This document shows positions 27,484-58,970 of a stretch of 64,000 nt of DNA, piece by piece; the stretch's first letter is position 1, and each line of letters begins with the position of its first letter. Under the pieces are notes generated by a model that saw only the letters and a program-made list of their open reading frames with translations, was not told the origin of the DNA and did not search any database. Made by a program: the position numbers and the translations under genes. This stretch comes from a virus (Duplodnaviria; Caudoviricetes): positions 32,001 to 96,000 of the IMG/VR virus record IMGVR_UViG_3300033074_001354. One strand, given 5' to 3'.

Positions 27484-27696
27484 TTATACACCCATACATG
27501 GAGGAACAGCTAAACCACCAGGAGTTATTTGTAGATCAACACCGTATTTTTCTACTATTCTAGCATGACATTCTTTCTCTTGATAAGCTGTCCAACCTAA
27601 AGTCTCAGTTGGAGGTATACTATCTACTAGACTTGGCAGTATGCCAGGTACTACTGGCAGTTCAACACCTAAAAATCTTACGTAATCTATGCTCAT
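27484..27696 (-). CDS. Small hypothetical protein
   Basis: Coupled to the glycosyltransferase gene; shares a KECH....EKY motif with it. Confidence 0.4.
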   Translation of the reverse strand: MSIDYVRFLGVELPVVPGILPSLVDSIPPTETLGWTAYQEKECHARIVEKYGVDLQITPGGLAVPPCMGV

Positions 27697-28520
27697 TCTT
27701 TATACCAATCAAATATACCCAAGTGTGACAAATCACGGTGTAAGTTTTTCCAAGAAGCATTCAATTTCAAACGCCCATCCTTCTTGTATGTTCGAAGTTT
27801 GAACCAATTTGGATACTTCTCCAACATATAATCATGACATTCTTTGTGCACTGTTTGGTAGAACATAGAACACCCATCATTCCCTGTAGAACCAACAGTT
27901 GTCTGCAATTTGCTATACGCAAAATCTGAAGTTAGGCATGCACGTTTACCAGCTAGCCATAACTTGAGATTCATCTCAGCATCCTCATTTAATGGAAGAT
28001 CAGCTGTATAATTACCTGCAGCAAGGACATCTTGCACGTTCAAAATGATGCAACTGACTGCCCAAGACTTAAACCAGAATTTTGGAATGTCACCAAACCG
28101 AAGATTAAAATGATGTATGAACCCAAGCATAGATATACGATTAGCTTTGCAGAGCATCATGGCTTTTTCCAGATGAGCTTTAGTCTTTATAGGATAATAC
28201 TTACTGTCATGATCTGCCTTGAACGACAGAGCATTGATGTCATCATCTAACATCCATATGTATTTGATCTGCTTCTTGGAAGCCCACTGGACAATGTAAT
28301 TTCGAGCAAACCCAATTCCCCTATCGTTATCAGGAAGTATCTCCACAGGAAGCCCCAGACTCATGTAAAGGTTTATATCCTGGGGCTCAACAAATACCGT
28401 GGCAGTATGTATTCCAAGATCTTTGAGAAGTTTAAAAGTCCGACCGTTAGGTCTTCCTTTTGAAGGAACACAGATCCAAGAATCTATACTCCACAGTTGG
28501 GTCTTATCTATGCCAATCAA
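27693..28520 (-). CDS. GT-A glycosyltransferase, TAGT/GREB1-like (DNA base modification-associated)
   Basis: VPSKGR, VFVEPQD...Y, GIGFARN, WMLDDDI, EDAEM motifs. Confidence 0.7.
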   Translation of the reverse strand: MIGIDKTQLWSIDSWICVPSKGRPNGRTFKLLKDLGIHTATVFVEPQDINLYMSLGLPVEILPDNDRGIGFARNYIVQWASKKQIKYIWMLDDDINALSFKADHDSKYYPIKTKAHLEKAMMLCKANRISMLGFIHHFNLRFGDIPKFWFKSWAVSCIILNVQDVLAAGNYTADLPLNEDAEMNLKLWLAGKRACLTSDFAYSKLQTTVGSTGNDGCSMFYQTVHKECHDYMLEKYPNWFKLRTYKKDGRLKLNASWKNLHRDLSHLGIFDWYKE

Positions 28521-35266: not shown

Positions 35267-36060
35267 TATTGTTGCCTTTCATTGTTTGGTACTGAATAAA
35301 CTAGGCCTTTGCTGCTCCATATCTCATCGATCAATCCTTCAAAAACAGCCAAGCCCTTAGTAAAGAACCCATGGGTAGTCATTAGTATAATGCGACCACA
35401 ATGCTTAGTCTTCAAAATTTTGGCAATTTCTATAAAAGTGCGACCACCATCGCATATATCATCCATGATCACACAGTCTTTTCCACCTAGATCTTCTGCA
35501 GCAACATTCACACCCGTAATCTCTCCAGTAGCAGTATCACGTTGCTTGCTGCATTCTATAACACCCAGATTCTTAAAACGTTTGGCAGTCTTGAAAATCT
35601 TCTTCATAGCGCCAGCGTCAGGGCATATAAGGTAAAACCCTTTGCCTATGATCTCCAATTGGTGCAAAGGCTCGTTGAATATCTGATGCTGCTCAATGAC
35701 CTTGCAATTTTCTATTAAAGCCGTCGTTACATCAGAATGTGGATCAAGAACAAATACATTATCAAATCCAAGTGAATTGATGATCTTAGAGAATACCTTC
35801 AAAGAAAATGCTTCACCAAAAGCATTAATACGGTCTTGCCTGCTAAAAGGGACATAATCCATGTTTAGAGAAAGATTTCTGCAACCTATGCGACGAAGCG
35901 CATCACATACTAGAGCTAGCTCAAAAACTTCTTCGTTCCTTTCGAAATCAAAATCAACAGTTGCAATTTCTACATTAGTTGATCCATCAATTACTTGAAT
36001 CTGCATTTCACCACAGGGAAAATTGAACTTCTTTATATTAAATCCTGGCACGTTAATCAT
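35266..36060 (-). CDS. Ribose-phosphate pyrophosphokinase-family enzyme (Adps-like)
   Basis: FPCGE, YVPFSRQDR, DPHS, PDAGA.KK, K.RD..TG.I, DDICDGGRTF, THG.F. Confidence 0.9.
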   Translation of the reverse strand: MINVPGFNIKKFNFPCGEMQIQVIDGSTNVEIATVDFDFERNEEVFELALVCDALRRIGCRNLSLNMDYVPFSRQDRINAFGEAFSLKVFSKIINSLGFDNVFVLDPHSDVTTALIENCKVIEQHQIFNEPLHQLEIIGKGFYLICPDAGAMKKIFKTAKRFKNLGVIECSKQRDTATGEITGVNVAAEDLGGKDCVIMDDICDGGRTFIEIAKILKTKHCGRIILMTTHGFFTKGLAVFEGLIDEIWSSKGLVYSVPNNERQQ

Positions 36061-36103: not shown

Positions 36104-38059
36104 TTAGGAATTGTTATGCAGAAGAGAAATTATGGTATCCTTCTGAAGCGCTTCAGGAGAAAGATCTAAATCTGCTTTTGCTTTAGATTTCACCAGAACC
36201 GCACCAGACAATTTGAGCACTTCAGAAAGTTTTACTGCATTTTCATAATAGCTAACCATAAAACTACGAATATGCTCAGACACTTCAGAGCCACCATAGG
36301 AGCTGTTACCCTTGGACGTATCAGTGTCCATAAAGTAGAACTTGCAATTGACTTTATTAATGACAAGCAGCCCAATAGTCTTCTGCCTGTCACCAATATT
36401 TGCATCAACACGAGCAATAACTTCATTTGGATCAAGCATAAAGTTCTTTTCGAACTTATTGCCAGACTTGTAAGAGCCAACAACAATTTTAAAAGGAACT
36501 TCCTTTTCATTGTTGTGGTAGTGGTTGAAGAAGTTCAGAGCCATGACAGCTGTTAGGTTGTCCTGTTTCTTAATACGGAACAATTCTGTAGCGCCATTAG
36601 GCATAGGCGCATCAGTCATGTCCCCAGAGAACAGTATACTGCAAGATTCGTCACGGTAGTCAGCGTCCCAACCAATTTTGGAGCCATTCTCATCTAACAA
36701 CGAAAGATCAAGATCTACTCTATCATCTTCTACTACACCATCCCCAGTATTATTCCAATGAACCCCTATAATCATGTCATCATCCACAGTAATGCAGCTA
36801 CCAGAAGGCACATTTCCAACAAACTGCTTCTCCGTAGAAGGCAGAGCATACTCAACACCTTCCGGGATATAAACTTTCATACCATGCAGATGCTTCAAAG
36901 ATTTGGCAATTTCCTTTAGCACATAATTAAACGCTAACTTGTGATCATTTACTTTGTTGACTTCTATGCTAGTTGCATACCCTTTTCCGTTACGAATACG
37001 ATACAGAATGGAAGAAGGATTAGATGCCCTGTACTTGAGAGAATATGCAAGACGAATCTTTCTGAAAATATTCGCAGATTTAAGAGCACTGTCTAGATCT
37101 TCTTGGATAGCTTTGAACCCTTTTTCAACAACTAGTCTTGTCACACTGTTCAAGAAGTCCTGCTTCATAGGCTCATGATTCTTTATGGCTAACTTGCGTA
37201 TTCTATTCACAACTTTCTTCATAGGTTTGCTAGTGCGCAAAGCCAGAAACATTGGTTTGAACCTATAGAAAGATTTCGATAGTTCACCGTATCCATACGA
37301 GCTGTGGTAACGAACAAATAAAGGCAGAATGATTCTTACATCAGCACCCTTCAAAGACTCAATTGTTGCACGATCTTTGATCAACAGTGTGTTCTTGTTA
37401 ACCTTATAGATGACATATCGCAAGAATTCGGCAGCATCCTTCGGAACAGAATTTGTGAAATCATACATAATACAACGAACTTCTTTATTGTTGATTTCTC
37501 CGATGTCGCTAGGATTAAATCCAGTGTACATTAAAAGTTCCATAACATCATCTCGAGTTTGAGCCGACATAGCAATACCAGAACTCAACAAATGAAACAC
37601 CTTCTTTTTAATCTCTTCCTTAGTCAACCCACATATAACAGTAATCGACATGTCTTTAATTCTAACACGAGGAACTTTAAGAGTTTCCATGGGTATGTAA
37701 ACTGTATCATGATCAAAAATATGAAATGCTTCAAATCCGTAAGTTGTGACATAATGAAACATCTGCTCTATAACCAATTCTTCCATGCTAGCTTCACAAA
37801 TCTTCTTCCAGGATTTGTGAAATGCACTATTTAACTTCTCACCATCCAGAAAAGTTGCATCTATTTCTTCTATTAGATCATGCACTCCTTGTGCGCCACA
37901 CAAACTATAGATCTCAGGGGAAAACATATAGCCACAAGCAAGAGTCTTCTTTAATTGTGCAGCATCAGGCTTATGCCTGAGTTTTGTATGCTCGGAAATA
38001 GGAACTGCGTTGAACAATCTGAGAAGAGCAGGAATGAAAGAAACAGAACTAGTTTTCAC
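36104..38059 (-). CDS. Large protein with helical N-terminal region and TerD-like C-terminal domain
   Basis: C-terminal W...RVDLDLS...FSGDMTDAP..GATE resembles the TerD signature; GTG start at 38059 follows RBS AGGAGACCC. Confidence 0.55.
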   Translation of the reverse strand: MKTSSVSFIPALLRLFNAVPISEHTKLRHKPDAAQLKKTLACGYMFSPEIYSLCGAQGVHDLIEEIDATFLDGEKLNSAFHKSWKKICEASMEELVIEQMFHYVTTYGFEAFHIFDHDTVYIPMETLKVPRVRIKDMSITVICGLTKEEIKKKVFHLLSSGIAMSAQTRDDVMELLMYTGFNPSDIGEINNKEVRCIMYDFTNSVPKDAAEFLRYVIYKVNKNTLLIKDRATIESLKGADVRIILPLFVRYHSSYGYGELSKSFYRFKPMFLALRTSKPMKKVVNRIRKLAIKNHEPMKQDFLNSVTRLVVEKGFKAIQEDLDSALKSANIFRKIRLAYSLKYRASNPSSILYRIRNGKGYATSIEVNKVNDHKLAFNYVLKEIAKSLKHLHGMKVYIPEGVEYALPSTEKQFVGNVPSGSCITVDDDMIIGVHWNNTGDGVVEDDRVDLDLSLLDENGSKIGWDADYRDESCSILFSGDMTDAPMPNGATELFRIKKQDNLTAVMALNFFNHYHNNEKEVPFKIVVGSYKSGNKFEKNFMLDPNEVIARVDANIGDRQKTIGLLVINKVNCKFYFMDTDTSKGNSSYGGSEVSEHIRSFMVSYYENAVKLSEVLKLSGAVLVKSKAKADLDLSPEALQKDTIISLLHNNS

Positions 38060-38077
38060 AGGGTCTCCTTTTGTTAT

Positions 38078-38131
38078 AAAAGACGAGAAGTATTCGGTGG
38101 CTAACAATGTATAGGAACTTCTTATGTCTTT
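38078..38131 (-). ncRNA. Conserved hairpin RNA, copy B
   Basis: AAAGAC-ATA-AGAAGT-TCCTATA-CATTGTTAGCCACCGAA-T-ACTTCT-C-GTCTTT. Confidence 0.65.
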
Positions 38132-38206: not shown

Positions 38207-38230
38207 AGAGAAACCGTAGTTTACACTGCA
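38207..38230 (-). promoter_or_regulatory. Putative phage promoter TGCA-N12-GTTTCTCT
   Basis: One mismatch to consensus; immediately upstream of hairpin copy A. Confidence 0.55.
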
Positions 38231-40779
38231 GCAACAACTTTATTTCTGTGACTAACATCCCCTGAATCGTCGCCATCATCATCTTCTTCGGTTATTTCTG
38301 CCACAACTTCGTCACCATCACTCATAGTTAACTCACCTAACTTACTTCCTAGCTCAACATCAGCTTTGATTGGTACGTCTATCCAAGCATATGGAAGATT
38401 TTCCATTATAGCAATTAGCTGTGGTTTTACTATGGCAACTTCATGCATAGGACATTCCAAAACAATAGAATCATGCACTGTCATAACAAGCCTTGATTCA
38501 AGATTATTATCAAATATGAATTTGTTTATTAGGATCAAAGAAGATAATGTCATATCACTGGCCAATCCTTGAATTGGACTATTGAAAGATTGGCGTTCTG
38601 CATGTGACTTTATGGTGCGATTATAGCTATGGATCTCAGGTAATCTTCTCTTGCGACCAATAAGACTACGAACAAATCCAAATTTACGAGCGTGATCTAT
38701 GCAAGCGTTCATATATTTCTTTACAGCTGGATATCTGTTGAAGTAATCATCCATGAATCTTCTAGCTTCGTCTTCTGTACATTCCAAAATAGAAGCCAAT
38801 GCTGGTGGCCCCATCCCATAAACCAATCCAAAGTTAATAACTTTTGCAAAACGACGCACTTCTTTAATAACAGGATCATTGTCTCTCTTGGAATGAAATT
38901 CTTCATATGGCATTCCATGAACCTGAGAACCAACAAACGAATGAATATCCTTGCCCTCATGAAACGCTCTCATGAGTCCAGGGTCGCGAGAACATATAGC
39001 TAATACACGTAACTCAATTTGGGAATAATCGGCGTGCACATATACATAACCTTTCTTAGGGACAAATATATTCTTAATGGATTTGTCACGAGGAATCTGC
39101 TGCATATTTGGCTTTGAACTAGATAGTCTTCCTGTCTTTGTCCCAGTAATAAAATACCCACCATGAACACGACCATCATATTTCATCCACTCTTTACGAG
39201 CCAATTGCACATACTTGGTGTTTGCCGTTCTAAGAATCTTCCAATCGCAAACAACCTTAACTACTGGGTGCTTCTTCTCTAGAGGCTTCAAAGCCTTTTT
39301 ACCAGTAGAACGACCACCTGTCTTTGTTAATTTCAAACATGGGAGCTTGAAATAATCATAAAGTAGAGTTGATAACTGTACAGAAGAACCAAAATTTATT
39401 GCCTTTAACTTCTTATTTTTTATTGAAGAAACTTTTCCTTCTTCAACATCTCGCAGCATCATAACAGACTCTGGAAATTCTTGAAGCTCGTGCTCAAGCT
39501 TAGTAAGCCTATTAGGAACATCCACTTCCAGAAATTTAACATAATCAACATCTATAGCAATGCCTGCTTTTTCTATATCCTTTAGCATCTCCACTGATGG
39601 CATCATTATATTGTAAAATACCCAAGCATGTTTGGAATCTTGTTCAAGAACAGGCTTCTGCTCTAAGTAGATACGAATAGTGGCATCAACGTCGGCACAA
39701 CAGTATCGGCTAAGAATGCCCAGCTCTACCTTGTCCATATCTCCTTTGCTGATACCCATTCTCTGTAGATAACCATCCAATTCCATATCATAGCGACCCA
39801 TATCAGTATACTGCACAGCTAGACGCTTTAACGATAAATACTTTTTATTCTCGTCCAACGCATACTCTCCGACCATTGTGTCATAGAAAAGATTGTTGCT
39901 TCTAAAATTCCACAACACTTCTGTGTACAATGCATCAAATTTTAAATTATGGCCTATCTTCTTAATACTATCGTCCTTAAGTATCTCTATAACATATTGC
40001 TTTATCTCTTGATATACTTCATCAGAAAACTGCCTTTGTGGGTGATCAAATGGGATAAACCAAGCATGCTTTGGTTTGGTAGTAAACCCAGTACCAACAA
40101 TTTTAGCCTCAACATGCCAAGGGTCCAATCCAAATGATTCTATATCAAATACTGTAAACCCAGCTTCATAAATTTCAGCAACTAATTCATACATGTCTTC
40201 AATAGTTTTCACCGTACGATAGCCATCTATTTTTCTATCTGTGCACATTGCATCATAAATTGATTTCAAAGCAAGAATACTAGTAACAAATTTATCAGCA
40301 TCTTCTTCGCCAGCCATAACTCTAGATGGATGGACAATAGGATAATAGCATACTCCATCTTCTGACATAATAAGGTCACCAACCATCTTCTGAGAAACCT
40401 TCTTACCAAGAAAATACTGCACTGCTACGCTCCCAACAAGAACAACTATCTTCAAATTTGGCATGCTCTTAATATCCAGCTCTGTGTTCTCGCCGCATAA
40501 TTTAATTTCTTCTTTTGTAGCGGAACGAGATTCAGGAGTGCGACACCGAAGAACATTGGCTATTGCAATTTTGGAGAGATCAAATCCTGACTCTCTGAAT
40601 ACTTCTAACAAAAAAGTTCCATATTGGCCAGACATTGGCCTATTGGATGAATCGTCAGATAATCCAGGTGCTTCGGAAACTAGTAGAAGGGGGCTTTTGG
40701 GGTCTCCATACAATGGCATCCTTGGTGAGCTGCAGGTCTTATATAAACCACACTTTTCACAATTATCCCAATAATTCAA
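38221..40779 (-). CDS. polA: Family A DNA polymerase with N-terminal family-4 UDG-like domain and 3'-5' exonuclease
   Basis: CEKC..., EAPG, LRCR.P, HPS (UDG); FDIE, HNLKFD, YCCAD (exo); TGRLSS..PNMQ, DYSQIELR, AKVINFG..YG, VHDS. Confidence 0.93.
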   Translation of the reverse strand: MNYWDNCEKCGLYKTCSSPRMPLYGDPKSPLLLVSEAPGLSDDSSNRPMSGQYGTFLLEVFRESGFDLSKIAIANVLRCRTPESRSATKEEIKLCGENTELDIKSMPNLKIVVLVGSVAVQYFLGKKVSQKMVGDLIMSEDGVCYYPIVHPSRVMAGEEDADKFVTSILALKSIYDAMCTDRKIDGYRTVKTIEDMYELVAEIYEAGFTVFDIESFGLDPWHVEAKIVGTGFTTKPKHAWFIPFDHPQRQFSDEVYQEIKQYVIEILKDDSIKKIGHNLKFDALYTEVLWNFRSNNLFYDTMVGEYALDENKKYLSLKRLAVQYTDMGRYDMELDGYLQRMGISKGDMDKVELGILSRYCCADVDATIRIYLEQKPVLEQDSKHAWVFYNIMMPSVEMLKDIEKAGIAIDVDYVKFLEVDVPNRLTKLEHELQEFPESVMMLRDVEEGKVSSIKNKKLKAINFGSSVQLSTLLYDYFKLPCLKLTKTGGRSTGKKALKPLEKKHPVVKVVCDWKILRTANTKYVQLARKEWMKYDGRVHGGYFITGTKTGRLSSSKPNMQQIPRDKSIKNIFVPKKGYVYVHADYSQIELRVLAICSRDPGLMRAFHEGKDIHSFVGSQVHGMPYEEFHSKRDNDPVIKEVRRFAKVINFGLVYGMGPPALASILECTEDEARRFMDDYFNRYPAVKKYMNACIDHARKFGFVRSLIGRKRRLPEIHSYNRTIKSHAERQSFNSPIQGLASDMTLSSLILINKFIFDNNLESRLVMTVHDSIVLECPMHEVAIVKPQLIAIMENLPYAWIDVPIKADVELGSKLGELTMSDGDEVVAEITEEDDDGDDSGDVSHRNKVVAAV

Positions 40780-40782
40780 GAC

Positions 40783-42102
40783 CTACACCATCCAAAATTC
40801 TGCGAATGCCTTTTCAGCGCCAGCACATATTTTTTCTGATAGCTTACCAATCTTAAGGTCATTATAATATCCTGTAGGATTGCCATTAGAAAGATCTATA
40901 AACTGCTGGGCAATGACTTTTCTATCAAACAAATTAAATGTCTCACGACAATTATTGCGAATCTCTTCTGCTTTATGCGAAGGCATATTAGAGTATTCAA
41001 CAATATAATCAGCATACTTTTTAGGAGTATCTGCTGAATGGGGAATGCTTAAATAATTTACACCCGCTTTAAATACAACGCCGTTCCCTTCAAGATTATC
41101 GCTGATTCCTAAAGGTCTCGCCACAGGAATTGCTCCCATACGAATTGCATCCACAACCACACGATTGAAATGATCACCCTTCTTGGAGTATCGATTTGAC
41201 CAGGAAGGATCAATAAGAAGACGAGACATAGATAATAGGCTATCACGAGTCTGATTATCTATATAGCCTAGGAATTCCATGCCATTTTCGACAGCAACAT
41301 CCCATATCTTACGGCCATACCAAGGAGACGTAGGATCTTCTAGGTATTTATATCTGTCTTTGCATTTATTTGGACTTGTCATATAAGCTTGCTCAAGTCC
41401 ACCACCAGCAATAAATCGAAACTCATCTGATTCTTTTGCTGGCATGTATGCAATGGCCTTTACCAAATCATCAACATGTTTCCAACCTTTGAAAATCTGA
41501 CAATTAACAAACCCCTTGTTTCTCTTTTCATATGGCAACGCAAACGCTTGTTCATCTAATGCTGGCTGTGGATTGAATATCATAGCCCTCGGTAAAGGTA
41601 TATTTTCTGCTGTTGCGTAGGCACAAGGGTGAACACAGGCAAGACCAATCATATTATCAGCTACGGATGCCAGCCATGGGTAAGAATTCTCAAGATTGCC
41701 ATCGTGTATAACAGCAATCTGCTTGACAGGAACATCATAGAGACCAAGCCAATCAGAATTGCCCCTTTGATGTTCCTGCATTGTAGGTACTGGTATTTGC
41801 CAAATAATTAGATCAAAGCCAGAAAGAACAGCTTTAGACCTCTCTACCGCTTCCACACCTTTGTATGGAAGGCGATTAACTGCAGGAAAACACCAACCCC
41901 TTCCTTGATCTACAAAGAGTCCTGAATGACCAATAGAAAATGTACTTGTGTCACGCTTTTGGTCACGGACTTTATCTTTCCAAATAGCTTCAAATAAAAC
42001 TGTCTCGTGGCCTAACTCTTTGAACCCAGCAATCAACTCTTCTGTGTGGTTGATAATTCCACCCATATTGTTGATGCCATAAAGAACGATGGCAATTTTC
42101 AT
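40783..42102 (-). CDS. GT-B fold glycosyltransferase
   Basis: MKIAIV...GG...HTEEL..G....GHE; WKHVDDLVKA; FLGYI; F.RVVVDAI..GAIPV. Confidence 0.7.
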   Translation of the reverse strand: MKIAIVLYGINNMGGIINHTEELIAGFKELGHETVLFEAIWKDKVRDQKRDTSTFSIGHSGLFVDQGRGWCFPAVNRLPYKGVEAVERSKAVLSGFDLIIWQIPVPTMQEHQRGNSDWLGLYDVPVKQIAVIHDGNLENSYPWLASVADNMIGLACVHPCAYATAENIPLPRAMIFNPQPALDEQAFALPYEKRNKGFVNCQIFKGWKHVDDLVKAIAYMPAKESDEFRFIAGGGLEQAYMTSPNKCKDRYKYLEDPTSPWYGRKIWDVAVENGMEFLGYIDNQTRDSLLSMSRLLIDPSWSNRYSKKGDHFNRVVVDAIRMGAIPVARPLGISDNLEGNGVVFKAGVNYLSIPHSADTPKKYADYIVEYSNMPSHKAEEIRNNCRETFNLFDRKVIAQQFIDLSNGNPTGYYNDLKIGKLSEKICAGAEKAFAEFWMV

Positions 42103-42410
42103 TAAACAGCAGCCTTTCTCTTGTACTTGCGAGCTTCACCAATTTTATAAGAACGACCATCAATCTTGAGTGTCTTGAGAGTTTCAAGATTAATGTTGCG
42201 ATGCTCATCCTTTTGGATATCAAACACATTGATGAGATTCTTAAGACTGGGCTTATATGACATTCCAATTCCCTTGACTCCCTTTTTAACACCCAAACGA
42301 CATGTCATTTCCCTCAGCGTTTCATCCTTCTTCGTGAAAGAAACGGAAAAGATTCTACCGTTGGAATTGACAATTTTATTATACGCTTGGTACTTAGATA
42401 TTCGTGTCAT
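42102..42410 (-). CDS. Small basic SH3-like beta-barrel phage protein
   Basis: GRIFSV.FTKKD...REM.CR.GV...VFD....R.I pattern. Confidence 0.55.
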   Translation of the reverse strand: MTRISKYQAYNKIVNSNGRIFSVSFTKKDETLREMTCRLGVKKGVKGIGMSYKPSLKNLINVFDIQKDEHRNINLETLKTLKIDGRSYKIGEARKYKRKAAV

Positions 42411-42411
42411 A

Positions 42412-42801
42412 CTATTTATCCTTTTCTACCTGTGCTTGTAACGCCAGCACAGATTGTTTAAACTTTTCATATTCTTCTGGATGCGTTACCATATACCCAG
42501 TTATAGCCTTAAAACAATAATTAGCTGTGTCAAATAACGTGTCCAAAATTGGCTCGCCCTTACCAGTATCTGGATTCTCCCATACAGTAGGATCAAAACT
42601 ATCTAAACGATCCGTTTTCCTGTAGATATTATGCGCAACTCCAGTCATACCACGCTTGTAGCATGACATTCCATACGTCTTACATTTAGCATTCTGTAGA
42701 ATATATGCCAATTCCGTTACTTCCTTAAACCTCTTATCCTGAGAATCAGGACCATCTGCTAGTATCAAATCAGTATTTTGCTTAGAAGTTCTGTTAGCCA
42801 T
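42412..42801 (-). CDS. Nucleotide-modification-associated domain 1 (Nmad1/DUF1599-like)
   Basis: K...YG.S....G....I.RK.DRL...E...DTL.D.ANY. Confidence 0.7.
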   Translation of the reverse strand: MANRTSKQNTDLILADGPDSQDKRFKEVTELAYILQNAKCKTYGMSCYKRGMTGVAHNIYRKTDRLDSFDPTVWENPDTGKGEPILDTLFDTANYCFKAITGYMVTHPEEYEKFKQSVLALQAQVEKDK

Positions 42802-42808
42802 GACTCTC

Positions 42809-43441
42809 CTATTTTGGGTTTGAATAACTATCAGCTACTGCATCATGTATCATATTTAATTTTATCATTTCAGAAAATTCTAATCTTACCAAAAAAGCAA
42901 CAAATTCTTGTAAAGATTTTAGCTGTTTATAAAAAGGATGCCTTGCAATTATAGATACGCCACGAGACATTATCTCCTTCATATTAGTGTTTCCTAATGA
43001 AACCTCTTCGTAGCAATAAAGACAAAGCTCAAGCATGTCTGCTAGGGCAACACAACTGCCCTCTAAATCTTTCTTGCAATCAGAAGCGATCTCCTTATAC
43101 ATCTGAACAGACTGAGGAAGCCCTTTGAAGAGTTCATCCCACATGAAGGAAGCAGTACTCTTTATTGCCTCATGAATATGTTTATTATGATGCTTCACAG
43201 GAAAAATGATATCACCAGTAAGAGCCTCATCAGCATCGTGCAACAAAGAATTACGTATAACTTTTTCTACCGAAATCTTGCCAGCATATTCTGGCAAAGT
43301 ATTCAACTCATCAGCAATCATCATGGCCAGTATAGAAACATAATAACTATGCTCTGCCACATTCTCATCATGAATTCTCCGATATGTAGAACAACGAATA
43401 ATATGCTTGAGCTTTCTAAGAGTAAAGACTAGGTCCTTCAT
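42809..43441 (-). CDS. HD-domain 5'-deoxynucleotidase (YfbR-like)
   Basis: ENVAEHSY.V, LLHD..E..TGDI..PVK, ALADMLE. Confidence 0.85.
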   Translation of the reverse strand: MKDLVFTLRKLKHIIRCSTYRRIHDENVAEHSYYVSILAMMIADELNTLPEYAGKISVEKVIRNSLLHDADEALTGDIIFPVKHHNKHIHEAIKSTASFMWDELFKGLPQSVQMYKEIASDCKKDLEGSCVALADMLELCLYCYEEVSLGNTNMKEIMSRGVSIIARHPFYKQLKSLQEFVAFLVRLEFSEMIKLNMIHDAVADSYSNPK

Positions 43442-43734
43442 CTGTTTCCTTTCTTTACTGACATTAAAATCATACGTTGATTAGAAAAGCCAATTGCTGC
43501 TCTGCCTATCGATCGTACTGGATCATGACGAAATTTCTGTATTGGTAAAACTACTTCAACTGACTGGTCATTTTGAGCAATAGTAACTGTTGTATAATGC
43601 CACTCCCAAGTATAACTTACACAATCACAATCGCATGCCGTAGAACTACAGCACCAAGTGTCAGAGCTGTTGTTTGTAGCGACAACCTTACGTCTCTTCC
43701 TAGAAACATTAGTTGGGCATTCGTACGGAGCCAA
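43438..43734 (-). CDS. Small Cys-rich hypothetical protein
   Basis: Fills the gap exactly between the TS homolog and HD genes. Confidence 0.4.
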   Translation of the reverse strand: MAPYECPTNVSRKRRKVVATNNSSDTWCCSSTACDCDCVSYTWEWHYTTVTIAQNDQSVEVVLPIQKFRHDPVRSIGRAAIGFSNQRMILMSVKKGNR

Positions 43735-44856
43735 TTAATACTCTTTCAAGTGTCTCATTAATTCTTTATCAAAGTGTAATGAAAACATATCAATTATTGC
43801 TTTTCTAGCATCACGATCATATTTACATCCAACTCTCAGTATATACTCAACGCAAGAATACACTAGATCACATGGTTGTGCATCAAACAAAATCCTAGCA
43901 GCTTGCATAGGATTGTCTTCTCTGAGATGCAAAAATGAAAATAATATCCTAGTCCAAGTAGACAACCAATCTGATTCATGCTCATCCACTGCTGATGCTG
44001 CCATCTCTGTATTGTCCACCGTATGCCGGCAACAAGATTCTAATCTCAAAATCTCATCTATTATGTTGAACACTTCTTGAAACGACTTAGTCTTAAGGTC
44101 AAATTCAAGAGGAGCAGTATGATCATATATATTAAAATCTGTAGCAGAATCAACGATATGTTGAAATCTATTATGAAACTTCTTATACATGTGACAAGAA
44201 GAAACAAAGAAGTAGAACTTTCCAACAGGAATACCCAATGAGTATGCCAATATTTCCTGAAGAACAGTCCACTCAAAGAAGTTAATATTGCTCCCCCACA
44301 AGAAATCCATACTACGAGATGCAACTTCCATATCCAGCTTTCCATCATGGACCAGAAAATGCAACCAATTATTACACGCAACATCCTTGGACTTAATATC
44401 ATGATCTTTGGCTGGATCGAAAATTTGAATAGTCGCTCTACGAGTATTTGTATCAGCTTTTAGAAGCTCCTGCACGGACTTAACCTGATCAACCGTAACC
44501 AACTGAGCGTTTCTGGTAATACCATTCCATTTTCTCAGCCTCTGGCCATAGCCAGCGCCCCACGTTTCCCCGTCATCAGAATATTCAGCTGCGCGTGGCA
44601 GATAATGCGTAAGAAACTGCATGTCAACTCTGCCAGCAAGAACCCACAACGTTTCAGCAACTTGGGCATACATATTATTATTGCGATATGGAGTCATAAA
44701 GACTCTCTTGGTAGGATCCAGCAATTCAAAAACCACTGGGTGAATCTCTAAAGTATCCATTTCCCTTCGATTAGCTGACTGCGATTTAAGCAACTCCCTC
44801 ATCACAGGTATTTGAATATCCTTTAGAGACTCCCCAGTGTAAACCTTCATCAACAA
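43735..44856 (-). CDS. Thymidylate synthase homolog, probable dUMP hydroxymethylase
   Basis: YGQRL, DQ, D..TRRA, KDVAC, RSMDFLWGSNINFFEW; Asn at the dUMP-specificity position. Confidence 0.75.
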   Translation of the reverse strand: MLMKVYTGESLKDIQIPVMRELLKSQSANRREMDTLEIHPVVFELLDPTKRVFMTPYRNNNMYAQVAETLWVLAGRVDMQFLTHYLPRAAEYSDDGETWGAGYGQRLRKWNGITRNAQLVTVDQVKSVQELLKADTNTRRATIQIFDPAKDHDIKSKDVACNNWLHFLVHDGKLDMEVASRSMDFLWGSNINFFEWTVLQEILAYSLGIPVGKFYFFVSSCHMYKKFHNRFQHIVDSATDFNIYDHTAPLEFDLKTKSFQEVFNIIDEILRLESCCRHTVDNTEMAASAVDEHESDWLSTWTRILFSFLHLREDNPMQAARILFDAQPCDLVYSCVEYILRVGCKYDRDARKAIIDMFSLHFDKELMRHLKEY

Positions 44857-45366: not shown

Positions 45367-45441
45367 TCAGGGTGGTAGGATTTGAACCTACGAGATCTCG
45401 CTCCCAAAGCGAGCGCTATGGCCAGCCTAAGCGACACCCTG
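45367..45441 (-). tRNA. tRNA-Pro(TGG)
   Basis: Acceptor CAGGGTG/CACCCTG, anticodon arm CTCGC-TTTGGGA-GCGAG, T arm GTAGG-TTCAAAT-CCTAC. Confidence 0.88.
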
Positions 45442-45575: not shown

Positions 45576-45896
45576 TCAAGATCTCTTTGCATCTGTATTT
45601 CTTGCAACTTTTCCTCTGCTAACTCTAACAACGTTTTCATAGTAACTTTTCCTTTTACTTGTGCTTTTTATGTTCCAAACATATAAGCAAGCGTTATACG
45701 TATGGTCCCATTCCTGCACTCTCTTTCTCACAAGCTTTTCTCGCTGATACGCCCAATACGCCTTATCTTGCTTGCTGATGTGATGCTTGATAGACTTATT
45801 TGATGGCCTCTTTCCAAATTGCTTTATAAACCATTTCTTAAATGAAAGTCTATTAAATTTTTCTTTGCTAGACTCAACTCTTGACAATACTAGCAT
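45576..45896 (-). CDS. Basic hypothetical protein
   Basis: RBS GGGGAG upstream. Confidence 0.5.
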   Translation of the reverse strand: MLVLSRVESSKEKFNRLSFKKWFIKQFGKRPSNKSIKHHISKQDKAYWAYQREKLVRKRVQEWDHTYNACLYVWNIKSTSKRKSYYENVVRVSRGKVARNTDAKRS

Positions 45897-45908
45897 TCTA
45901 CTCCCCCT

Positions 45909-46571
45909 CTATTTATCCTTCAATGATAGTCCATACTTGCGGATACGCATTGATTCAAAACATTCTGGGCCAACGTACTTATACCAGCCAACAGGCGGTA
46001 TCTGGTATGCAGATGAGACATCAACCCCTATTGCGACCAGCTTTGCTTCAAAATCACTGCAACCATCTAGTATGGCTGCTTCGTAGATCTCTTTAGCTAT
46101 TCCTTTAATGACGTATTCCTGCACTGTTTCCTCAGCGACATCACCTGATTGTAATTCATACAACCCTTCGTTTATAAACTCTAGCATCTTATCTGCCTCA
46201 AGCATAGAGTATTCATGAGGCCAAAGCTTTACAGCTTCTCCATTCACCATGACCCTTACTGCCTTCGATGGATTGGGAGATAATCCTAATGGATGAGCAG
46301 AAAGATCCATACTCTTGAATCTTTGGAATGACTCCTTAAACTCATCTCCCAAAGAATTTGGAATTTGATATGGATTCTGAAACTCTGCGGACGGAATACT
46401 TTTTATCTTACTGACAGTTCTAGCATCAAATTCTTCATCCAGTCTAAGATACTTGATAAACTCTTTCTTGACATGCTCACCTTCTATCCACCACACAGCC
46501 CAATATATCCCCATAAACTGTGGCCGATATTCTTCTTGAACAGGAATTTGTTGATTTACTAATATCCACAC
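45909..46571 (-). CDS. Hypothetical protein
   Basis: 220-aa coupled ORF. Confidence 0.6.
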   Translation of the reverse strand: MWILVNQQIPVQEEYRPQFMGIYWAVWWIEGEHVKKEFIKYLRLDEEFDARTVSKIKSIPSAEFQNPYQIPNSLGDEFKESFQRFKSMDLSAHPLGLSPNPSKAVRVMVNGEAVKLWPHEYSMLEADKMLEFINEGLYELQSGDVAEETVQEYVIKGIAKEIYEAAILDGCSDFEAKLVAIGVDVSSAYQIPPVGWYKYVGPECFESMRIRKYGLSLKDK

Positions 46572-47212
46572 TATTGCACCTCCATTGCATGATTACTCTT
46601 TATACCAAATATTGCACTAAATTTAACAGCAACATCCTTGTCTAGGAAAAACATAAATCCATTATCAAGCTCAATCCATCCAATGTACTTGTCATGAACA
46701 CATAGTGGACGACTCTTTGTCTTCAGCTTAGCATGCGCCTCTAATACTTTGTCAGAGGACATAGCATCAGCTAGCCAAACGCATTCCTTTGTTCGGATTC
46801 TCTCAGGGTGCTGATCGTTGGCGAAGATGGATATACGACGGTAAGTTTCTTGCTGCCATTCTGGCCTCGTAATTGCATACACGATCTTCTTTCCTGTGTA
46901 TACAACGCCAGGAAATAGCGATGAGAATTCTCTATACGAAAATTCCACTTCCTTTTCATACAGTGCAAACTTACTGGCATCTACATGCAGATTCTTGAAG
47001 AAATTTGGCAAAGCCCCAAACTCAAATTCTGCAGAACCCATGTAATCAAATTGAAACAATGGCTTAAGAAGAGAACTCCATCCCTTATACAGTTCCGTCA
47101 GAGTGCGCTTCTCCTTTAGCATATTCTCAAGATCAACCCGTTGCCCTTCGTCCCATAGTGAAGGCTTCTGCAGCCTTTGAACTAGATAAGAAGAATTTTC
47201 CATACTATTCAC
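46571..47212 (-). CDS. Conserved phage hypothetical protein
   Basis: YLVQRL...FDYMGSAEFEFGALP motif. Confidence 0.65.
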   Translation of the reverse strand: MNSMENSSYLVQRLQKPSLWDEGQRVDLENMLKEKRTLTELYKGWSSLLKPLFQFDYMGSAEFEFGALPNFFKNLHVDASKFALYEKEVEFSYREFSSLFPGVVYTGKKIVYAITRPEWQQETYRRISIFANDQHPERIRTKECVWLADAMSSDKVLEAHAKLKTKSRPLCVHDKYIGWIELDNGFMFFLDKDVAVKFSAIFGIKSNHAMEVQ

Positions 47213-47855
47213 CCTTATGTTTCAATTGGCAAGTTGCTTTGTATACCATTTTTAAAATATATCCCTCTCGAGTATTAGGCCAAGACATGCTGCCATCTGT
47301 CTTTTTGTAGTAATGATTGCACCTATCAATAAGCTCGTTGACTCGGCTTTCCTTAAGCGTCTCAGATATAGCCAGTCTAGTATATTCAGCACAGAGTTTA
47401 ATTGCAAGCTCAGACAGCACTTCTTTCATGTGGGATTCAACAGCATCTTCACCAATTATTTCATCTACTGCATCTTGAATCAATTCCTCTTCAGATGGCA
47501 TAATTACGCGATCAACAAGCACGTTGCATCGAACGCATTGAGGATCTCGAACTTGGTGCGCTGAACATATTGAATGAGCACCTTTCAACAGGAATGAAAT
47601 GGGCACTTTGGTTGATTTTTCATACAGTTTCATTGCGGATTGCTTCCAAGTCTCTAAATCTTTTGTTAATATTTTAATACTCCATTCATAATGATCCACC
47701 TTCTCCCGTCTACCCTTGGCTAAGCCAAGTCGTCTTTCTCTGTCTAGAGCATCAACTATTAGCATATATGGCCTATCTTTTCCACCTTGTTTATACCCAC
47801 AAAGTTTATTCCATAAATCTTTAGCAATTTTTACTAGGTCAGAGGTATTTTTCAT
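47205..47855 (-). CDS. Hypothetical protein
   Basis: Coupled ORF. Confidence 0.5.
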   Translation of the reverse strand: MKNTSDLVKIAKDLWNKLCGYKQGGKDRPYMLIVDALDRERRLGLAKGRREKVDHYEWSIKILTKDLETWKQSAMKLYEKSTKVPISFLLKGAHSICSAHQVRDPQCVRCNVLVDRVIMPSEEELIQDAVDEIIGEDAVESHMKEVLSELAIKLCAEYTRLAISETLKESRVNELIDRCNHYYKKTDGSMSWPNTREGYILKMVYKATCQLKHKGE

Positions 47856-48147
47856 GTCTTCATCCTTCTGTTTGTGAAAGAAACCAACTCACACAAAGCA
47901 TCACCATAGGCCTGCGCAGATTGTAGACATTGTTCATTATTGCTAGCTCTTGAACGTGCCAATTTACGCCTCTTAATCTTCTTGCTGAGAGTATCAGCCA
48001 ATTCCCATCCAGCTATTTTCTCAGCATCATCTAATGCATGAAATGTTTTGAATCTATTTAGTTCCCTAGCAATTTTCTTAGCACTGCCTATTGCCATAAT
48101 GAGCTCATCAATCTTTGGTGTCATTTTATTCCTGCGATTACCAGTGC

Positions 48148-57321: not shown

Positions 57322-58086
57322 CTACTCCCAAGTTGCTATAATAGCAGAATAAAGTGACAAAGCCTTATACTCTTTATGCCCTACAACTTCTATTTTAACG
57401 CCATATTTCTCTATAGTTTCTTGTCTTTTACGTATAGACAAAGGAGTTTCATATCCTTTTACTTCAACGTATGTATTTCTGTTTATCAAAAAGAAATCAG
57501 GGCGATATCTATACCCTTCCAACTGGAAAGTTTTCTTCTCATAAGTGTATGGTTCTTTAATATAATTTAAATACCTAGCGTAGTTAGCTTCCCATCTTGA
57601 CCTAACAAAGTGCCCTATATCTTCTCTGTGGCCAGACTTACCACGACCCATCTTTGCATTATCAAACACACCGGAATCCCACATTTTCCTTGTCGCCACT
57701 CTATGTCTATCTTTTGATTCTTCAGACAACTTCCACTTCTTGCCTTTAACATTTTTATTGCCATCAGCATTATGGTTACCGATCTTTGCTAAAGAATATG
57801 TCTTCCGAGATTCCTCAGACAATATTCTACCAACGCAAAGTTTATTTCCTAACATCCTATCTCTTCTATATTCTAGTTCACCAGGCTTCCAATTTAATTT
57901 CATTCCTAGAGTTGTATGAGTTCCAAAGGCAGGATTATTAGAACCATTTTTATCTCTCAAAGATATCTTCTTGCCTTTATCAGTATGAGCAAAGAACTTG
58001 TGACCTCCCATACCTCCAGATTTTATTGCCTTACCACATACGTCACAGTTTGTCATACTGTGGCACTCATAGGAGTGAAATAACAC
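57322..58086 (-). CDS. Free-standing endonuclease (NUMOD3-like repeats + PD-(D/E)xK domain)
   Basis: LSEES repeats; RSRWE...A..L...YE...YRPDFFL...YVEVKG. Confidence 0.7.
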   Translation of the reverse strand: MLFHSYECHSMTNCDVCGKAIKSGGMGGHKFFAHTDKGKKISLRDKNGSNNPAFGTHTTLGMKLNWKPGELEYRRDRMLGNKLCVGRILSEESRKTYSLAKIGNHNADGNKNVKGKKWKLSEESKDRHRVATRKMWDSGVFDNAKMGRGKSGHREDIGHFVRSRWEANYARYLNYIKEPYTYEKKTFQLEGYRYRPDFFLINRNTYVEVKGYETPLSIRKRQETIEKYGVKIEVVGHKEYKALSLYSAIIATWE

Positions 58087-58970
58087 TTAGGTTGTCCTTT
58101 GCCAAATTTAGTTCTAAAATACTTGTTTGCCTCGCACATCGAGTGCTCGATATCACGAAGCACCAGACTGCCTTCACACATAGGGAAATACAACCCAATC
58201 TCATTAATATGTTCAACTTGCTTATCTCTCAAGTAAGTCAACTTCTCTTCTACTTCGGAAATCTTAATATCAGGTCCATAGATCCATTTAGCTCCTGCAT
58301 GACAGCCAGGGCCAACGTTCACGAAATCATTCTCTGTAAATGGTATCAATCTACCATTATGCTTTTCACTGTAGTATGTCAGATCACACCAAATCTCATA
58401 CGCTGTAAATTTACCAACCATGGGAATCTTCTGTAACATCCTGAACTGTTCTGCTGGTGTAGACAAAGAAGCAATATCCTGTATTTTGCAGTATTGATAC
58501 TCACCATCGCTAAGAAGATCTTCCCATACCTGTATAACTCTCTCAAACTTCTGATTGCCAGGATGTAATTTCTTGAGACGCATATTGCCTGGATGAACTA
58601 TATAAGCAGAAGTGAATATTCTGAACCCTTTACTCTTCAGAGCTCTAAAAAATTCCAATATACATTCAGTATCTGGCTTGCCATCCACAATACGCCGAGA
58701 TATATAGTCCCACGTTACAATCCTGTTCAACAATCTGTATGCCACTATAGCAGCAAATATCTCCTGAGATTTCCAGTTTTGATTAAGAATGTTATTAACC
58801 AAATAAACAGTGCCACGATCCAACCTTCGCATAACATTTGTAAACTTAAACTTTCTCAATATCTCATCATCGGTCCATGGAGCTGGTAATTTCTTTACGA
58901 ATCTATTTTCATAGATCTGATGCCTTTTACAAACAAATTTCCAAAACTCTGCTTCCATTTTAGTCATCAT
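58053..58970 (-). CDS. aGPT-Pplase1 / hmdU-DNA-kinase-helical-type DNA hypermodification protein
   Basis: R..I...R....PAPWTDD.IL..FKFTNV.R..DR.T, YR..N, FTSAY, G.F.AYEI..DL, GPG...G, IEH.MCE..KY. Confidence 0.8.
   Translation of the reverse strand: MMTKMEAEFWKFVCKRHQIYENRFVKKLPAPWTDDEILRKFKFTNVMRRLDRGTVYLVNNILNQNWKSQEIFAAIVAYRLLNRIVTWDYISRRIVDGKPDTECILEFFRALKSKGFRIFTSAYIVHPGNMRLKKLHPGNQKFERVIQVWEDLLSDGEYQYCKIQDIASLSTPAEQFRMLQKIPMVGKFTAYEIWCDLTYYSEKHNGRLIPFTENDFVNVGPGCHAGAKWIYGPDIKISEVEEKLTYLRDKQVEHINEIGLYFPMCEGSLVLRDIEHSMCEANKYFRTKFGKGQPKCYFTPMSATV

Follow-up and report, generated by a model that had tools for sequence, protein, structure and literature searches.

A predicted thymine-replacement and DNA-glycosylation module in a large uncultured tailed phage

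A seven-gene locus in the replication region

Seven adjacent genes at 38221-44856 of the analyzed 64,000-nucleotide stretch of phage DNA (hereafter, the window) appear, with reasonable likelihood, to form a module by which a large uncultured tailed phage replaces thymine and glycosylates its DNA. We propose with moderate confidence, judging from sequence, that thymine is replaced by hydroxymethyluracil (hmU) before replication and that glycosylation of this base follows on the DNA itself. If true, this phage would carry sugar-modified hmU in its DNA; we know of no phage in which a sugar on uracil in DNA has so far been shown.

The source record spans 134.7 kb and is ~73% complete. An earlier note had described a contiguous run of genes from a TS homolog through a UDG-PolA, and all seven open reading frames of this run were recovered on the minus strand, tightly packed with a spacing of at most 7 nt or small overlaps (Table 1). 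The order polymerase, hydroxymethylase, beta-glucosyltransferase in T4 is the same as that of the phage locus.

Table 1 Features of the locus and of two further genes in the window
Feature	Length (aa)	Coordinates	Strand	Evidence
UDG (family 4) - 3'-5' exonuclease - family A DNA polymerase	852	38221..40779	-	Domain matches
GT-B glycosyltransferase (GT), predicted hmU-DNA glycosyltransferase	439	40783..42102	-	GT-B model; gene neighborhoods
Small Sm/SH3-like beta-barrel protein	102	42102..42410	-	phrog_2267 4.6e-18
All-helical protein, remote Nmad1 (DUF1599) relative	129	42412..42801	-	Profile-search relatives
HD-domain YfbR-like 5'-deoxynucleotidase	210	42809..43441	-	PF12917 3.1e-29
Cys-rich ORF	98	43438..43734	-	Codon score 0.154
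TS homolog, predicted dUMP hydroxymethylase	373	43735..44856	-	Pfam Thymidylat_synt 1e-22; phrog_3676 1e-64
TET-associated glycosyltransferase (TAGT), GT-A type	275	27693..28520	-	PF20691 9e-20
M6 gp55-like helix-hairpin-helix protein (Pfam HMUDK_hel; "aGPT-Pplase clade 1")	305	58053..58970	-	PF18723 3.7e-61

The TS homolog and the replacement of thymine

The TS homolog contains the motif RSMDFLWGSNINFFEW, as had been noted, and its second Asn aligns with N177 of E. coli ThyA. In ThyA numbering, the aligned residues are D143, C146, N147, D169, and N177. D143, C146, D169, and N177 are shared with SPO1 gp29 and a ViI-like dUMP hydroxymethylase, whereas ThyA has L143; the residue criteria for this signature were taken from PMC13326640. 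The closest solved relative is the CMP hydroxymethylase MilA (8.7e-27, versus ~1e-12 for ThyA), and similarity to gp29-type dUMP hydroxymethylases extends over the full length. The phylogeny suggested in the earlier note placed the protein inside the verified dUMP-hydroxymethylase clade with SPO1 gp29, the ViI-like enzyme, Molly, Montesquieu, and LuckyBarnes (support 98/88), a clade that also includes M6 gp58, separate from ThyA and T4 gp42, although long branches make its exact position uncertain.

These branches, together with the fact that specificity was predicted from few residues and the tree alone, leave some room for an enzyme that is not a dUMP hydroxymethylase but makes dTMP, hmdCMP, or 5-hydroxy-dCMP, in which case the modified base, if any, would not be hmU. 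We consider this very improbable: N177 points to a uracil rather than a cytosine substrate, D143 to a hydroxymethyl rather than a methyl product, and every relative of known activity in the clade makes hmdUMP. D169 is also retained, whereas 5-hydroxy-dCMP synthases carry N there; those of RB69 and DLP3, whose products are arabinosylated, combine N177D with D169N (PMC13326640). What this phage would share with RB69 and DLP3 is that the hydroxyl to which DNA glycosyltransferases attach sugar comes from a TS homolog.

The polymerase of the locus has the expected domains (DNA_pol_A 2.6e-101, UDG 2.4e-16, exonuclease 4.3e-13), confirming its identity as a UDG-PolA, and its UDG domain shows the family-4 motifs SEAPG and HPS as well as N-terminal Cys residues. 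Its top phage matches are the SP-10, SPO1, and CP-51 type polymerases, sharing 31-33% identity across 93-96% of the protein. Since these belong to hmU or T-modified Bacillus phages (PMC13697223), the polymerase fits an hmU genome. The claim of an hmU genome is thus backed by the TS residues, the TS clade, and the SPO1/SP-10 type UDG-PolA, and in this phage hydroxymethyluracil very probably takes the place of thymine.

Smaller genes of the locus

The HD protein is homologous to M6 gp59 (5.8e-5) and to cluster 5 of the M6-like loci (2.7e-19); it also resembles NF003009 (3.8e-22), under the cut-off of that family. The adjacent all-helical protein had been labeled Nmad1. A direct Pfam search returned no match for it, and the label survives as a remote link: a profile search yielded 432 relatives, and 5 of 45 match PF07659, "Nucleotide modification associated domain 1" (best E 1.4e-4). 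One relative carries a fused YfbR-like HD domain. The protein's model (pLDDT 94.2) has as its best fold match the solved protein 2p06 (AF_0060; Z 8.6), with solved MazG-type pyrophosphohydrolases further down (Z 5.5-6.0); for a helical bundle, such matches are not decisive. That the two proteins together clear thymine nucleotides is a reasonable suggestion for the HD protein and unsupported for the Nmad1-like one.

The beta-barrel protein matches WYL_2 at 2.3e-5 and 25 bits, slightly below the 26.7 cut-off. For the Cys-rich ORF, family and homology searches returned no family or homolog, and searches of the same stretch for RNA families and unusual folding were likewise negative. The ORF has a codon score (0.154) that falls inside the range of the phage's genes (the other two frames score -0.43 and -0.81), and we regard it as probably coding.

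The glycosyltransferase and its genomic neighborhoods

The high-confidence AF2 model of the GT (pLDDT 94.1) bears out the GT-B assignment, while Pfam Glycos_transf_1 scored 24.8 bits, beneath its 26.4 cut-off. Its four best structural matches are all T4 alpha-glucosyltransferase (Z 26.1-26.6), one of them a structure with HMU-containing DNA bound; PimA (Z 25.9) ties with them at a difference of less than one Z unit, a margin within which other GT4 enzymes acting on lipids or small molecules also fall. At the sequence level, the GT and the T4 enzymes show no detectable similarity. More than 340 homologs were found, all metagenomic, and none in cultured phages by tblastn against a phage collection that includes SPO1.

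We surveyed 80 IMG/VR loci with GT homologs. A dUMP hydroxymethylase lies beside the GT in 37 (39 by tblastn), within 3.5 kb and at a median gap of 84 nt, and a TET/JBP dioxygenase in 35 (median gap 10 nt); the two never occur together (0/80). Hence, in 72 of the 80 loci the GT adjoins one of two unrelated hmU-producing enzymes, an either/or pattern seen across the 47 lineages into which the GTs fall at 90% identity and the 14 at 60%. N177 and D143 are present in each of the 39 TS homologs that neighbor a GT. Neither a C5 methyltransferase nor a TS homolog occurs in five TET-type records, of which one is complete, and their dioxygenase substrate is therefore probably thymine. An association of GT with ThyS in metaviromes was noted earlier (Pyle et al., bioRxiv 10.1101/2023.12.21.572611).

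The relatives linked to a TS homolog are M6-like. M6 belongs, with ViI, PhiW-14, SP10, and PaMx11, to the phages with kinase-dependent thymidine hypermodification (PMC5889632, PMC8989533). The TS-linked contigs have counterparts of M6 gp41-46, 49, 55, 58, 59, 61, and 62, and those of gp50-54 and gp56 are absent from them; the GT gene sits between those for the gp55-like and gp58-like proteins. The site that the cassette of kinase, amino-acid transferase, PLP, and radical-SAM enzymes occupies in M6 is taken by the GT in complete M6-like genomes. Five complete M6-like genomes of the GT type were searched for the M6 kinase and transferase, and no homolog of either was found (for the kinase search, the M6 query recovered the ViI-like kinase at 1.8e-15 as a positive control), and PLP and radical-SAM homologs are absent from the M6-like loci. 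Our phage shares the M6 backbone of TS homolog, HD protein, and PolA (gp58, gp59, and gp62), as well as the gp55-like protein; it differs from the kinase-dependent systems in that neither a P-loop 5-hmdU DNA kinase nor a clade-2 amino-acid:DNA transferase was found in its record, which has the GT in their place.

The 72 neighborhoods and the position of the GT in the M6 cassette slot support the proposal that the enzyme acts on hmU. As the family adjoins an hmU-making enzyme in ~70 contigs, the phage DNA is probably sugar-coated on uracil. Alternatively, the genome could be plain hmU, as in SPO1, with the GT and TAGT acting on a non-DNA target, for example a virion protein, part of the host envelope, or a small molecule. 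The many GT4 enzymes with non-DNA acceptors among the closest folds and the sub-threshold Pfam score would suit such a role, and a non-DNA acceptor is conceivable given the phage's other glycan gene sets, at least one of which is a further large cluster adjoining tail-fibre genes; these sets more probably decorate virion proteins. We nevertheless consider this alternative unlikely. It leaves unexplained both the either/or adjacency across 14 lineages and the occupation of a base-modification slot in M6-like genomes, and the GT is encoded within a translationally packed replication operon rather than in a structural-gene region.

Further genes and a predicted pathway

Two relevant genes in the window had been overlooked in the earlier note. 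One, in the replication region, encodes the JGT-related TAGT, which scores 71.9 bits against PF20691 (cut-off 27.5), has the DDD motif, and matches LuckyBarnes gp40, a neighbor of the LuckyBarnes TS homolog (blastp 4e-7); tblastn against the phage collection returned no TAGT homologs. It is a candidate second DNA glycosyltransferase. The other encodes the gp55-like protein, with blastp matches to M6 gp55 (5e-17) and Montesquieu MONT_52 (7e-16). In 31 loci, a homolog is found immediately upstream of the GT gene. The gp55-like family is elsewhere part of kinase-dependent pathways; the protein was rejected as a kinase itself, having no Walker A motif. Neither a P-loop 5-hmdU kinase nor a dCMP deaminase, dUTPase, or dNMP kinase was found in the phage record, which is weak evidence because ~27% of the genome is absent from it.

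That missing portion also matters for a reading in which hmU is first derivatized, either through the kind of linker found in SP-15, YerA41, and Carin-5 or by the gp55-like protein working with a kinase whose gene lies in the missing region, and the GT glycosylates the adduct. The gp55-like gene is present and conserved beside the GT, an FkbM-type methyltransferase gene often lies between the two in relatives, and large UDG-PolA phages with polymerase-proximal GTs carry linker, phosphate, and sugar on T (PMC12686479, PMC13697223). Our phage resembles SP-15, YerA41, and Carin-5 in its large size, UDG-fused PolA, polymerase-proximal GT genes, TS homolog, and predicted sugars on a T-derived base. 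However, their SP15-like polymerases contain large inserts, and their sugars are joined to the base via a linker and phosphate (PMC12686479, PMC13697223), whereas the polymerase here is SPO1-like and no linker-forming genes were recognized. Moreover, the five complete M6-like genomes combine gp55-like, GT, and TS genes without kinase or transferase homologs, and TET-linked relatives have no gp55-like gene within 10 kb of the GT. Prior derivatization thus seems improbable to us.

Under direct glycosylation of hmU, the pathway would begin with conversion of dUMP to 5-hydroxymethyl-dUMP by the TS homolog, as its active-site residues and phylogeny suggest. The HD 5'-deoxynucleotidase, perhaps with the Nmad1-like protein, could skew the nucleotide pool against dTMP. 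Going by its family, the SPO1-type UDG-PolA would incorporate hmdUTP and remove stray uracil. After replication, the GT-B enzyme, to judge from neighborhoods and fold, would flip hmU from the duplex and transfer a sugar to the 5-hydroxymethyl group. The donor would be a nucleotide sugar, probably host UDP-hexose, and, given that the nearest structural matches are retaining enzymes, it would probably be attached through an alpha linkage. A second sugar or linkage type may come from the TAGT, and the gp55-like protein is a conserved companion that may act in hmU recognition. A P-loop kinase step is apparently not involved.

Relation to known DNA modification systems

The predicted scheme parallels hmC glucosylation in T-even phages, with a TS-homolog hydroxymethylase acting before replication and a GT acting on the DNA polymer afterwards, the GT being a GT-B enzyme with T4 alpha-glucosyltransferase as its top structural match. 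T-even phages employ two transferases, and here too the genome has two of differing type, the second being a GT-A TAGT, unlike in T-even phages. The base also differs (uracil by N177, versus cytosine), as do the transferase sequences and the polymerase, which is family A with a UDG domain rather than family B.

With the SPO1/SP8-type hmU phages (Herelleviridae), the phage shares a gp29-type TS homolog, an SPO1-like UDG-PolA, and, by prediction, full thymine replacement. To our knowledge, SPO1 hmU stays unmodified, and SPO1 has no homolog of the GT or TAGT by tblastn of the phage collection.

The modification had also been called possibly base-J-like, which is loosely apt. As in base J (JBP1/2 plus JGT) and the phage T-dioxygenase/GT clusters (PMC13229309; Pyle et al., bioRxiv 10.1101/2023.12.21.572611), the predicted sugar acceptor is hmU, a JGT-related gene is present, and homologs of the operon GT adjoin TET/JBP in 35 loci. 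The likeness falters in that no TET/JBP was found in the phage's own record and the operon GT, with its GT-B fold, resembles T4 alpha-glucosyltransferase, making an alpha linkage likelier than the beta-glucose of base J. Furthermore, as the TS homolog would make hmU before replication, replacement should be genome-wide rather than site-specific as in base J.

Genome setting and operon layout

The source virus record spans 134,685 bp and is 73% complete according to CheckV, with the window covering its bases 32001-96000. Nearly all genes lie on the minus strand, and a megablast search with the region found no near-identical phage in the cultured-phage collection. All seven open reading frames (ORFs) that the earlier note had described as a contiguous operon were recovered at the same coordinates, separated by gaps of at most 7 nt or overlapping slightly. 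The 98-aa Cys-rich ORF had a codon score of 0.154, versus -0.43 and -0.81 in the other two frames, and its 293-nt stretch matched no Rfam family and showed an ordinary folding energy (z 0.59). A scan for promoters and terminators gave a signal no greater than in shuffled controls.

Features of the window, ordered by position
Feature	Position	Strand	Evidence
TET-associated glycosyltransferase (TAGT)	27693-28520	-	PF20691 9e-20; 71.9-72.5 bits vs cut-off 27.5; DDD motif
NAD salvage pair	33779-36060	-	phrog_448 5e-200; phrog_619 2.3e-76
667-aa protein	36104-38107	-	NF041916 6.4e-8, weak, far under cut-off
UDG-exo-PolA	38221-40779	-	852 aa; DNA_pol_A 2.6e-101, UDG 2.4e-16, 3'-5' exonuclease 4.3e-13
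GT-B glycosyltransferase (GT)	40783-42102	-	439 aa; Glycos_transf_1 just under cut-off
Beta-barrel protein	42102-42410	-	102 aa; WYL_2 just under cut-off; phrog_2267 4.6e-18
Nmad1-like protein	42412-42801	-	129 aa; no direct family match
YfbR-like HD 5'-deoxynucleotidase	42809-43441	-	210 aa; 3.1e-29
98-aa Cys-rich ORF	43438-43734	-	98 aa; codon usage favours frame; no family match
Thymidylate synthase (TS) homolog	43735-44856	-	373 aa; Thymidylat_synt 1e-22
tRNA-Pro (anticodon TGG)	45367-45441	-	Rfam 55.5 bits
Six consecutive genes	45576-48483	-	106, 220, 213, 216, 99 and 111 aa; no Pfam match
ATP-dependent DNA ligase	49564-50805
GroEL-type chaperonin	51411-53030	-	Cpn60_TCP1 2.4e-79
M6 gp55-like helix-hairpin-helix protein	58053-58970	-	PF18723 'HMUDK_hel' 3.7e-61

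Several neighbouring genes were also recorded. Directly downstream of the polymerase lies the gene for the 667-aa protein, whose sole match is to a RING-domain family, and two genes downstream of the polymerase is the NAD salvage pair, composed of a nicotinamide phosphoribosyltransferase (phrog_448) and a ribose-phosphate pyrophosphokinase-like gene (phrog_619). On the other side, the tRNA-Pro sits just upstream of a 148-aa gene, which in turn precedes the TS homolog. The six genes that separate the TS operon from a sigma-like gene include three of about 215 aa that also have no PHROG match, and the phage encodes a chaperonin with the DNA ligase gene nearby.

The TS homolog is a predicted dUMP hydroxymethylase

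We predict with high confidence that the TS homolog is a dUMP hydroxymethylase. The protein has the thymidylate synthase fold, its catalytic Cys aligns with C146 of E. coli, and it contains the motif in which the earlier note had read an Asn selecting dUMP over dCMP; our alignment places this residue at position 177 (E. coli numbering), in agreement with that reading. At this position N denotes a dUMP and D a dCMP substrate, while at position 143 L denotes a methyl product and D or E a hydroxymethyl product, and D169N marks 5-hydroxy-dCMP synthases (PMC13326640). The window's enzyme carries D143, C146, N147, D169, and N177, all identical in SPO1 gp29 and the ViI-like enzyme, whereas E. coli ThyA has L143 and H147; D169 is retained, unlike in the 5-hydroxy-dCMP synthases. 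The combination of D143 and N177 recurs in all 39 TS homologs found adjacent to GT genes.

Homology searches and phylogeny pointed in the same direction. The best phage matches were annotated or proven dUMP hydroxymethylases from SPO1-like (full length) and ViI-like phages, Montesquieu, LuckyBarnes, and Molly, and the best solved relative was the CMP hydroxymethylase MilA (8.7e-27), with ThyA enzymes at about 1e-12. In a maximum-likelihood tree, the check that the earlier note had proposed, the TS homolog formed a clade with SPO1 gp29, the ViI-like enzyme, and those of Molly, Montesquieu, and LuckyBarnes (support 98/88, with long branches), and all phage TS homologs split from ThyA and T4 gp42 (support 95/93).

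The polymerase and the small operon proteins

The best matches of the operon's polymerase were the UDG-fused polymerases of SP-10, SPO1, CP-51, and their relatives (31-33% identical across 93-96% of the length), a group that the literature connects to genomes with modified T and to active UDG domains (PMC13697223). The family-4 UDG motifs SEAPG and HPS and the N-terminal cysteines are all present. A different architecture characterizes the SP15-like phages (SP-15, YerA41, and Carin-5), whose insert-bearing UDG-PolA is defined by large inserts, a C-terminal domain, and a length above 900 aa (PMC13697223); the window's polymerase, in contrast, is shorter and of the SPO1/SP-10/CP-51 type.

The label 'Nmad1' given to one of the small proteins in the earlier note is at most a remote link through relatives and not a direct assignment. 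The protein itself did not match the PF07659 (Nmad1, DUF1599) profile; a profile search collected 432 relatives, and 5 of 45 relatives matched PF07659, 'Nucleotide modification associated domain 1' (best 1.4e-4). Atlas feature matches (0.93) led to a cluster where DUF1599 occurs in 32% of the members. A fusion to a YfbR-like HD domain (9e-15) is seen in one relative, which hints that the Nmad1-like protein acts together with the neighbouring HD enzyme. Modelled with pLDDT 94.2, the protein folds as a bundle made up of helices only, and Foldseek returned no match at E <=0.001. In the VIA comparison, the solved protein 2p06 (AF_0060) came first at Z 8.6, a weak score for a helical bundle, and solved MazG-type pyrophosphohydrolases followed further down the ranking at Z 5.5-6.0, likewise weak for a helical fold.

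A GT-B family associated with two routes to hydroxymethyluracil

The operon's GT has more than 340 metagenomic homologs. A tblastn search of 50,697 phage records, T4 among them, found no homolog in cultured phages at a threshold of 1e-5, and sequence homology to the T4 alpha-glucosyltransferase was likewise undetected at this threshold. An AlphaFold model built from 25 homologs (pLDDT 94.1) adopts the GT-B fold of two Rossmann domains, is matched by more than 800 GT-B chains at Z >=8, and retrieved GT4-type GT-B enzymes with Foldseek. Upon re-ranking with VIA-align, entries of the T4 alpha-glucosyltransferase took ranks 1-4 (Z 26.1-26.6, 339-342 residues aligned), two of the four containing HMU DNA, with PimA tied at 25.9. 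The modelled fold thus fits a DNA alpha-glucosyltransferase without being proof of one.

The genomic neighbourhoods of this family were also surveyed. While a locus search with the single GT sequence returned zero loci, an alignment-based search returned 80 loci in IMG/VR, for which we clustered the ORFs and named the main clusters by Pfam. Two contexts accounted for 72 of these loci. Type A (n=37) follows the order gp55-like protein (PF18723), sometimes an FkbM methyltransferase, GT, TS homolog, sometimes a PD-(D/E)XK nuclease, HD, DUF3310, and PolA; type B (n=35) consists of RecA, DnaB, a TET/JBP dioxygenase (PF12851, 4.6e-27), and GT. The median gap was 84 nt between GT and TS and 10 nt between GT and TET, and none of the 80 loci contained both a TS homolog and a TET/JBP gene. 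Among the eight loci with neither, tblastn revealed a TS homolog in two, and in three the GT lies at the locus edge. Collapsing the GTs at 90% identity left 47 lineages (25 with TS, 17 with TET, and 5 with neither), and at 60% identity 14 lineages (9, 3, and 2, respectively).

Five type B records, including a complete one of 169 kb, contained neither a C5 DNA methyltransferase nor a TS homolog, in agreement with the published assessment that such phage dioxygenases mostly convert thymine to 5-hydroxymethyluracil (5hmU; PMC13229309). Since most GT loci pair with either a TS homolog or a TET/JBP dioxygenase, one GT family goes with two unrelated routes predicted to make 5hmU. Taken with the fold, these neighbourhoods make the GT a candidate transferase of a sugar to 5-hydroxymethylpyrimidine in DNA.

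The GT in place of the kinase cassette of M6

The type A contigs are M6-like, with homologs of M6 gp41-46, 49, 55, 58, 59, 61, and 62 at about 32-55% identity. Homologs of gp50-54 and gp56 are absent from them, gp51-54 being the amino-acid:DNA transferase, PLP enzyme, radical-SAM enzyme, and P-loop kinase of M6, and the GT is placed between the gp55-like and gp58-like genes. Nor were kinase and transferase homologs present in five type A genomes with completeness ratings of 99-100%; the M6 kinase query did match the ViI-like kinase (1.8e-15), which served as positive control for the kinase search. The window's order of TS, HD, two small genes, GT, and PolA lies on the same backbone as M6 gp58, gp59, and gp62.

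Kinase-dependent thymidine hypermodification (5-HMUDK plus AADT) shares with the window a clade-1 helix-hairpin-helix paralog of the M6 gp55 type, a gene that the earlier note had missed. This protein matches M6 gp55 (blastp 5e-17), is homologous to the 'aGPT-Pplase clade 1' of Montesquieu, and belongs to a family found directly upstream of GT in 31 M6-like loci without any kinase; gp55 itself is dispensable for glycinyl-thymidine formation in vitro (PMC8989533). We considered the protein as a candidate 5-hmdU DNA kinase and dropped it, as it lacks a Walker A motif and its homologs are gp55 and 'aGPT-Pplase clade 1', not the kinase M6 gp54. Its Pfam name, 'HMUDK_hel', probably stems from kinase fusions such as SP10 gp186 (PMC5889632). 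Elsewhere in the 73%-complete record, tblastn and blastp gave no credible match to M6 gp54, and no clade-2 amino-acid:DNA transferase resembling M6 gp51 or Montesquieu MONT_42 was found.

A base J type system, composed of a thymine dioxygenase and a GT, would require a TET/JBP gene in the genome. In the 73%-complete record, a PF12851 search was empty, though control genomes gave no match either, and a profile made from the 35 TET/JBP genes that neighbour GT homologs likewise found nothing. The record also yielded no dCMP deaminase or dUTPase family member, and scans for N-terminal P-loop motifs revealed no obvious dNMP kinase. All these absences, of the kinase, the clade-2 transferase, and TET/JBP as well as these nucleotide enzymes, carry little weight because the record lacks roughly a quarter of the genome.

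The earlier note had also overlooked the TAGT, present as a single copy in this record that shows no TET/JBP gene. It is surrounded by replication and recombination genes (5'-3' exonuclease, RecA, and a gp32-like protein) and resembles the GTs adjoining the LuckyBarnes TS homolog. No TAGT homolog occurs within the 10-kb flanks of the GT loci, and among cultured phages such homologs are rare.

A proposed pathway of hydroxymethyluracil glycosylation

In the pathway we propose, the TS homolog would hydroxymethylate dUMP, a step with strong sequence evidence. The HD enzyme may then lower the level of competing dTMP, a role modelled on the dTMP nucleotidase that hmU Bacillus phages have. UDG-PolA would incorporate hmdUTP, again with strong sequence evidence, and the GT-B enzyme, judging by neighbourhoods and fold, would glycosylate hmU in the polymer, where the TAGT may add either a second sugar or another linkage. 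What is proposed for the sugar, its anomer, and how far the DNA is modified is guesswork.

More broadly, we see evenly balanced chances that this widespread, uncharacterised GT-B family of environmental phages is a dedicated hmU-DNA glycosyltransferase, paired with a pre-replication TS route and a post-replication TET/JBP route and replacing the kinase and amino-acid-transferase cassette in M6-like phages. Such an enzyme would yield alpha-linked glycosyl-hmU, either an anomer or an analogue of base J, which in phages like that of the window would replace thymine throughout the genome and might be extended by the TAGT.

The textbook cases of DNA glycosylation are the glycosylated hydroxymethylcytosine of T-even phages and base J in kinetoplastids. 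In the literature searched, we came across no phage GT described as working directly on TS-derived hmU, and glycosyl-hmU in phage DNA appeared only as linker-type adducts of SP-15-like phages. The association of GTs with hmU-making genes is in general already known, since ThyS genes are often found close to GT-B hits in metaviromes (~28% of hits; Pyle et al., bioRxiv 10.1101/2023.12.21.572611) and T-dioxygenase genes are frequently neighboured by a GT (PMC13229309).

If the proposal is true, sugar-on-uracil DNA would be common among environmental phages. Phages with such DNA should withstand many restriction and CRISPR nucleases, and sequencing may under-sample or mis-call them. The GT would also constitute a new enzyme family for 5hmU tagging or mapping, and base-modification modules would be exchanged as cassettes while the backbone of hydroxymethylase, HD, and polymerase stays fixed.

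Cultured phages and other glycosyltransferase genes

Two cultured phages make the wider idea, that TS-derived hmU is glycosylated without a kinase, directly testable. Maribacter phage Molly_5 (L087:5500-7993) and Brevibacterium phage LuckyBarnes (L092:4932-8096) encode TS homologs that directly adjoin annotated glycosyltransferases, and both TS homologs carry the hmU signature D143 and N177. The M6 5-hmdU kinase query found no homolog in either, nor in Montesquieu, and by tblastn their GTs are not detectable homologs of the window's GT. The Molly cluster also includes a UDP-glucose dehydrogenase and an epimerase.

Just past the end of the window, at about 96,760-111,284 of the record (G000:C1; L084:1261-15785), there is a large cluster of glycan genes, with tail-fibre genes following it. 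Its products are a GDP-mannose 4,6-dehydratase (1.6e-115), an epimerase, a DegT aminotransferase (8.5e-73), two methyltransferases, five glycosyltransferases of several families, and two MptE-like proteins. Because tail-fibre genes adjoin it, this cluster more probably serves glycosylation of the virion rather than of DNA.
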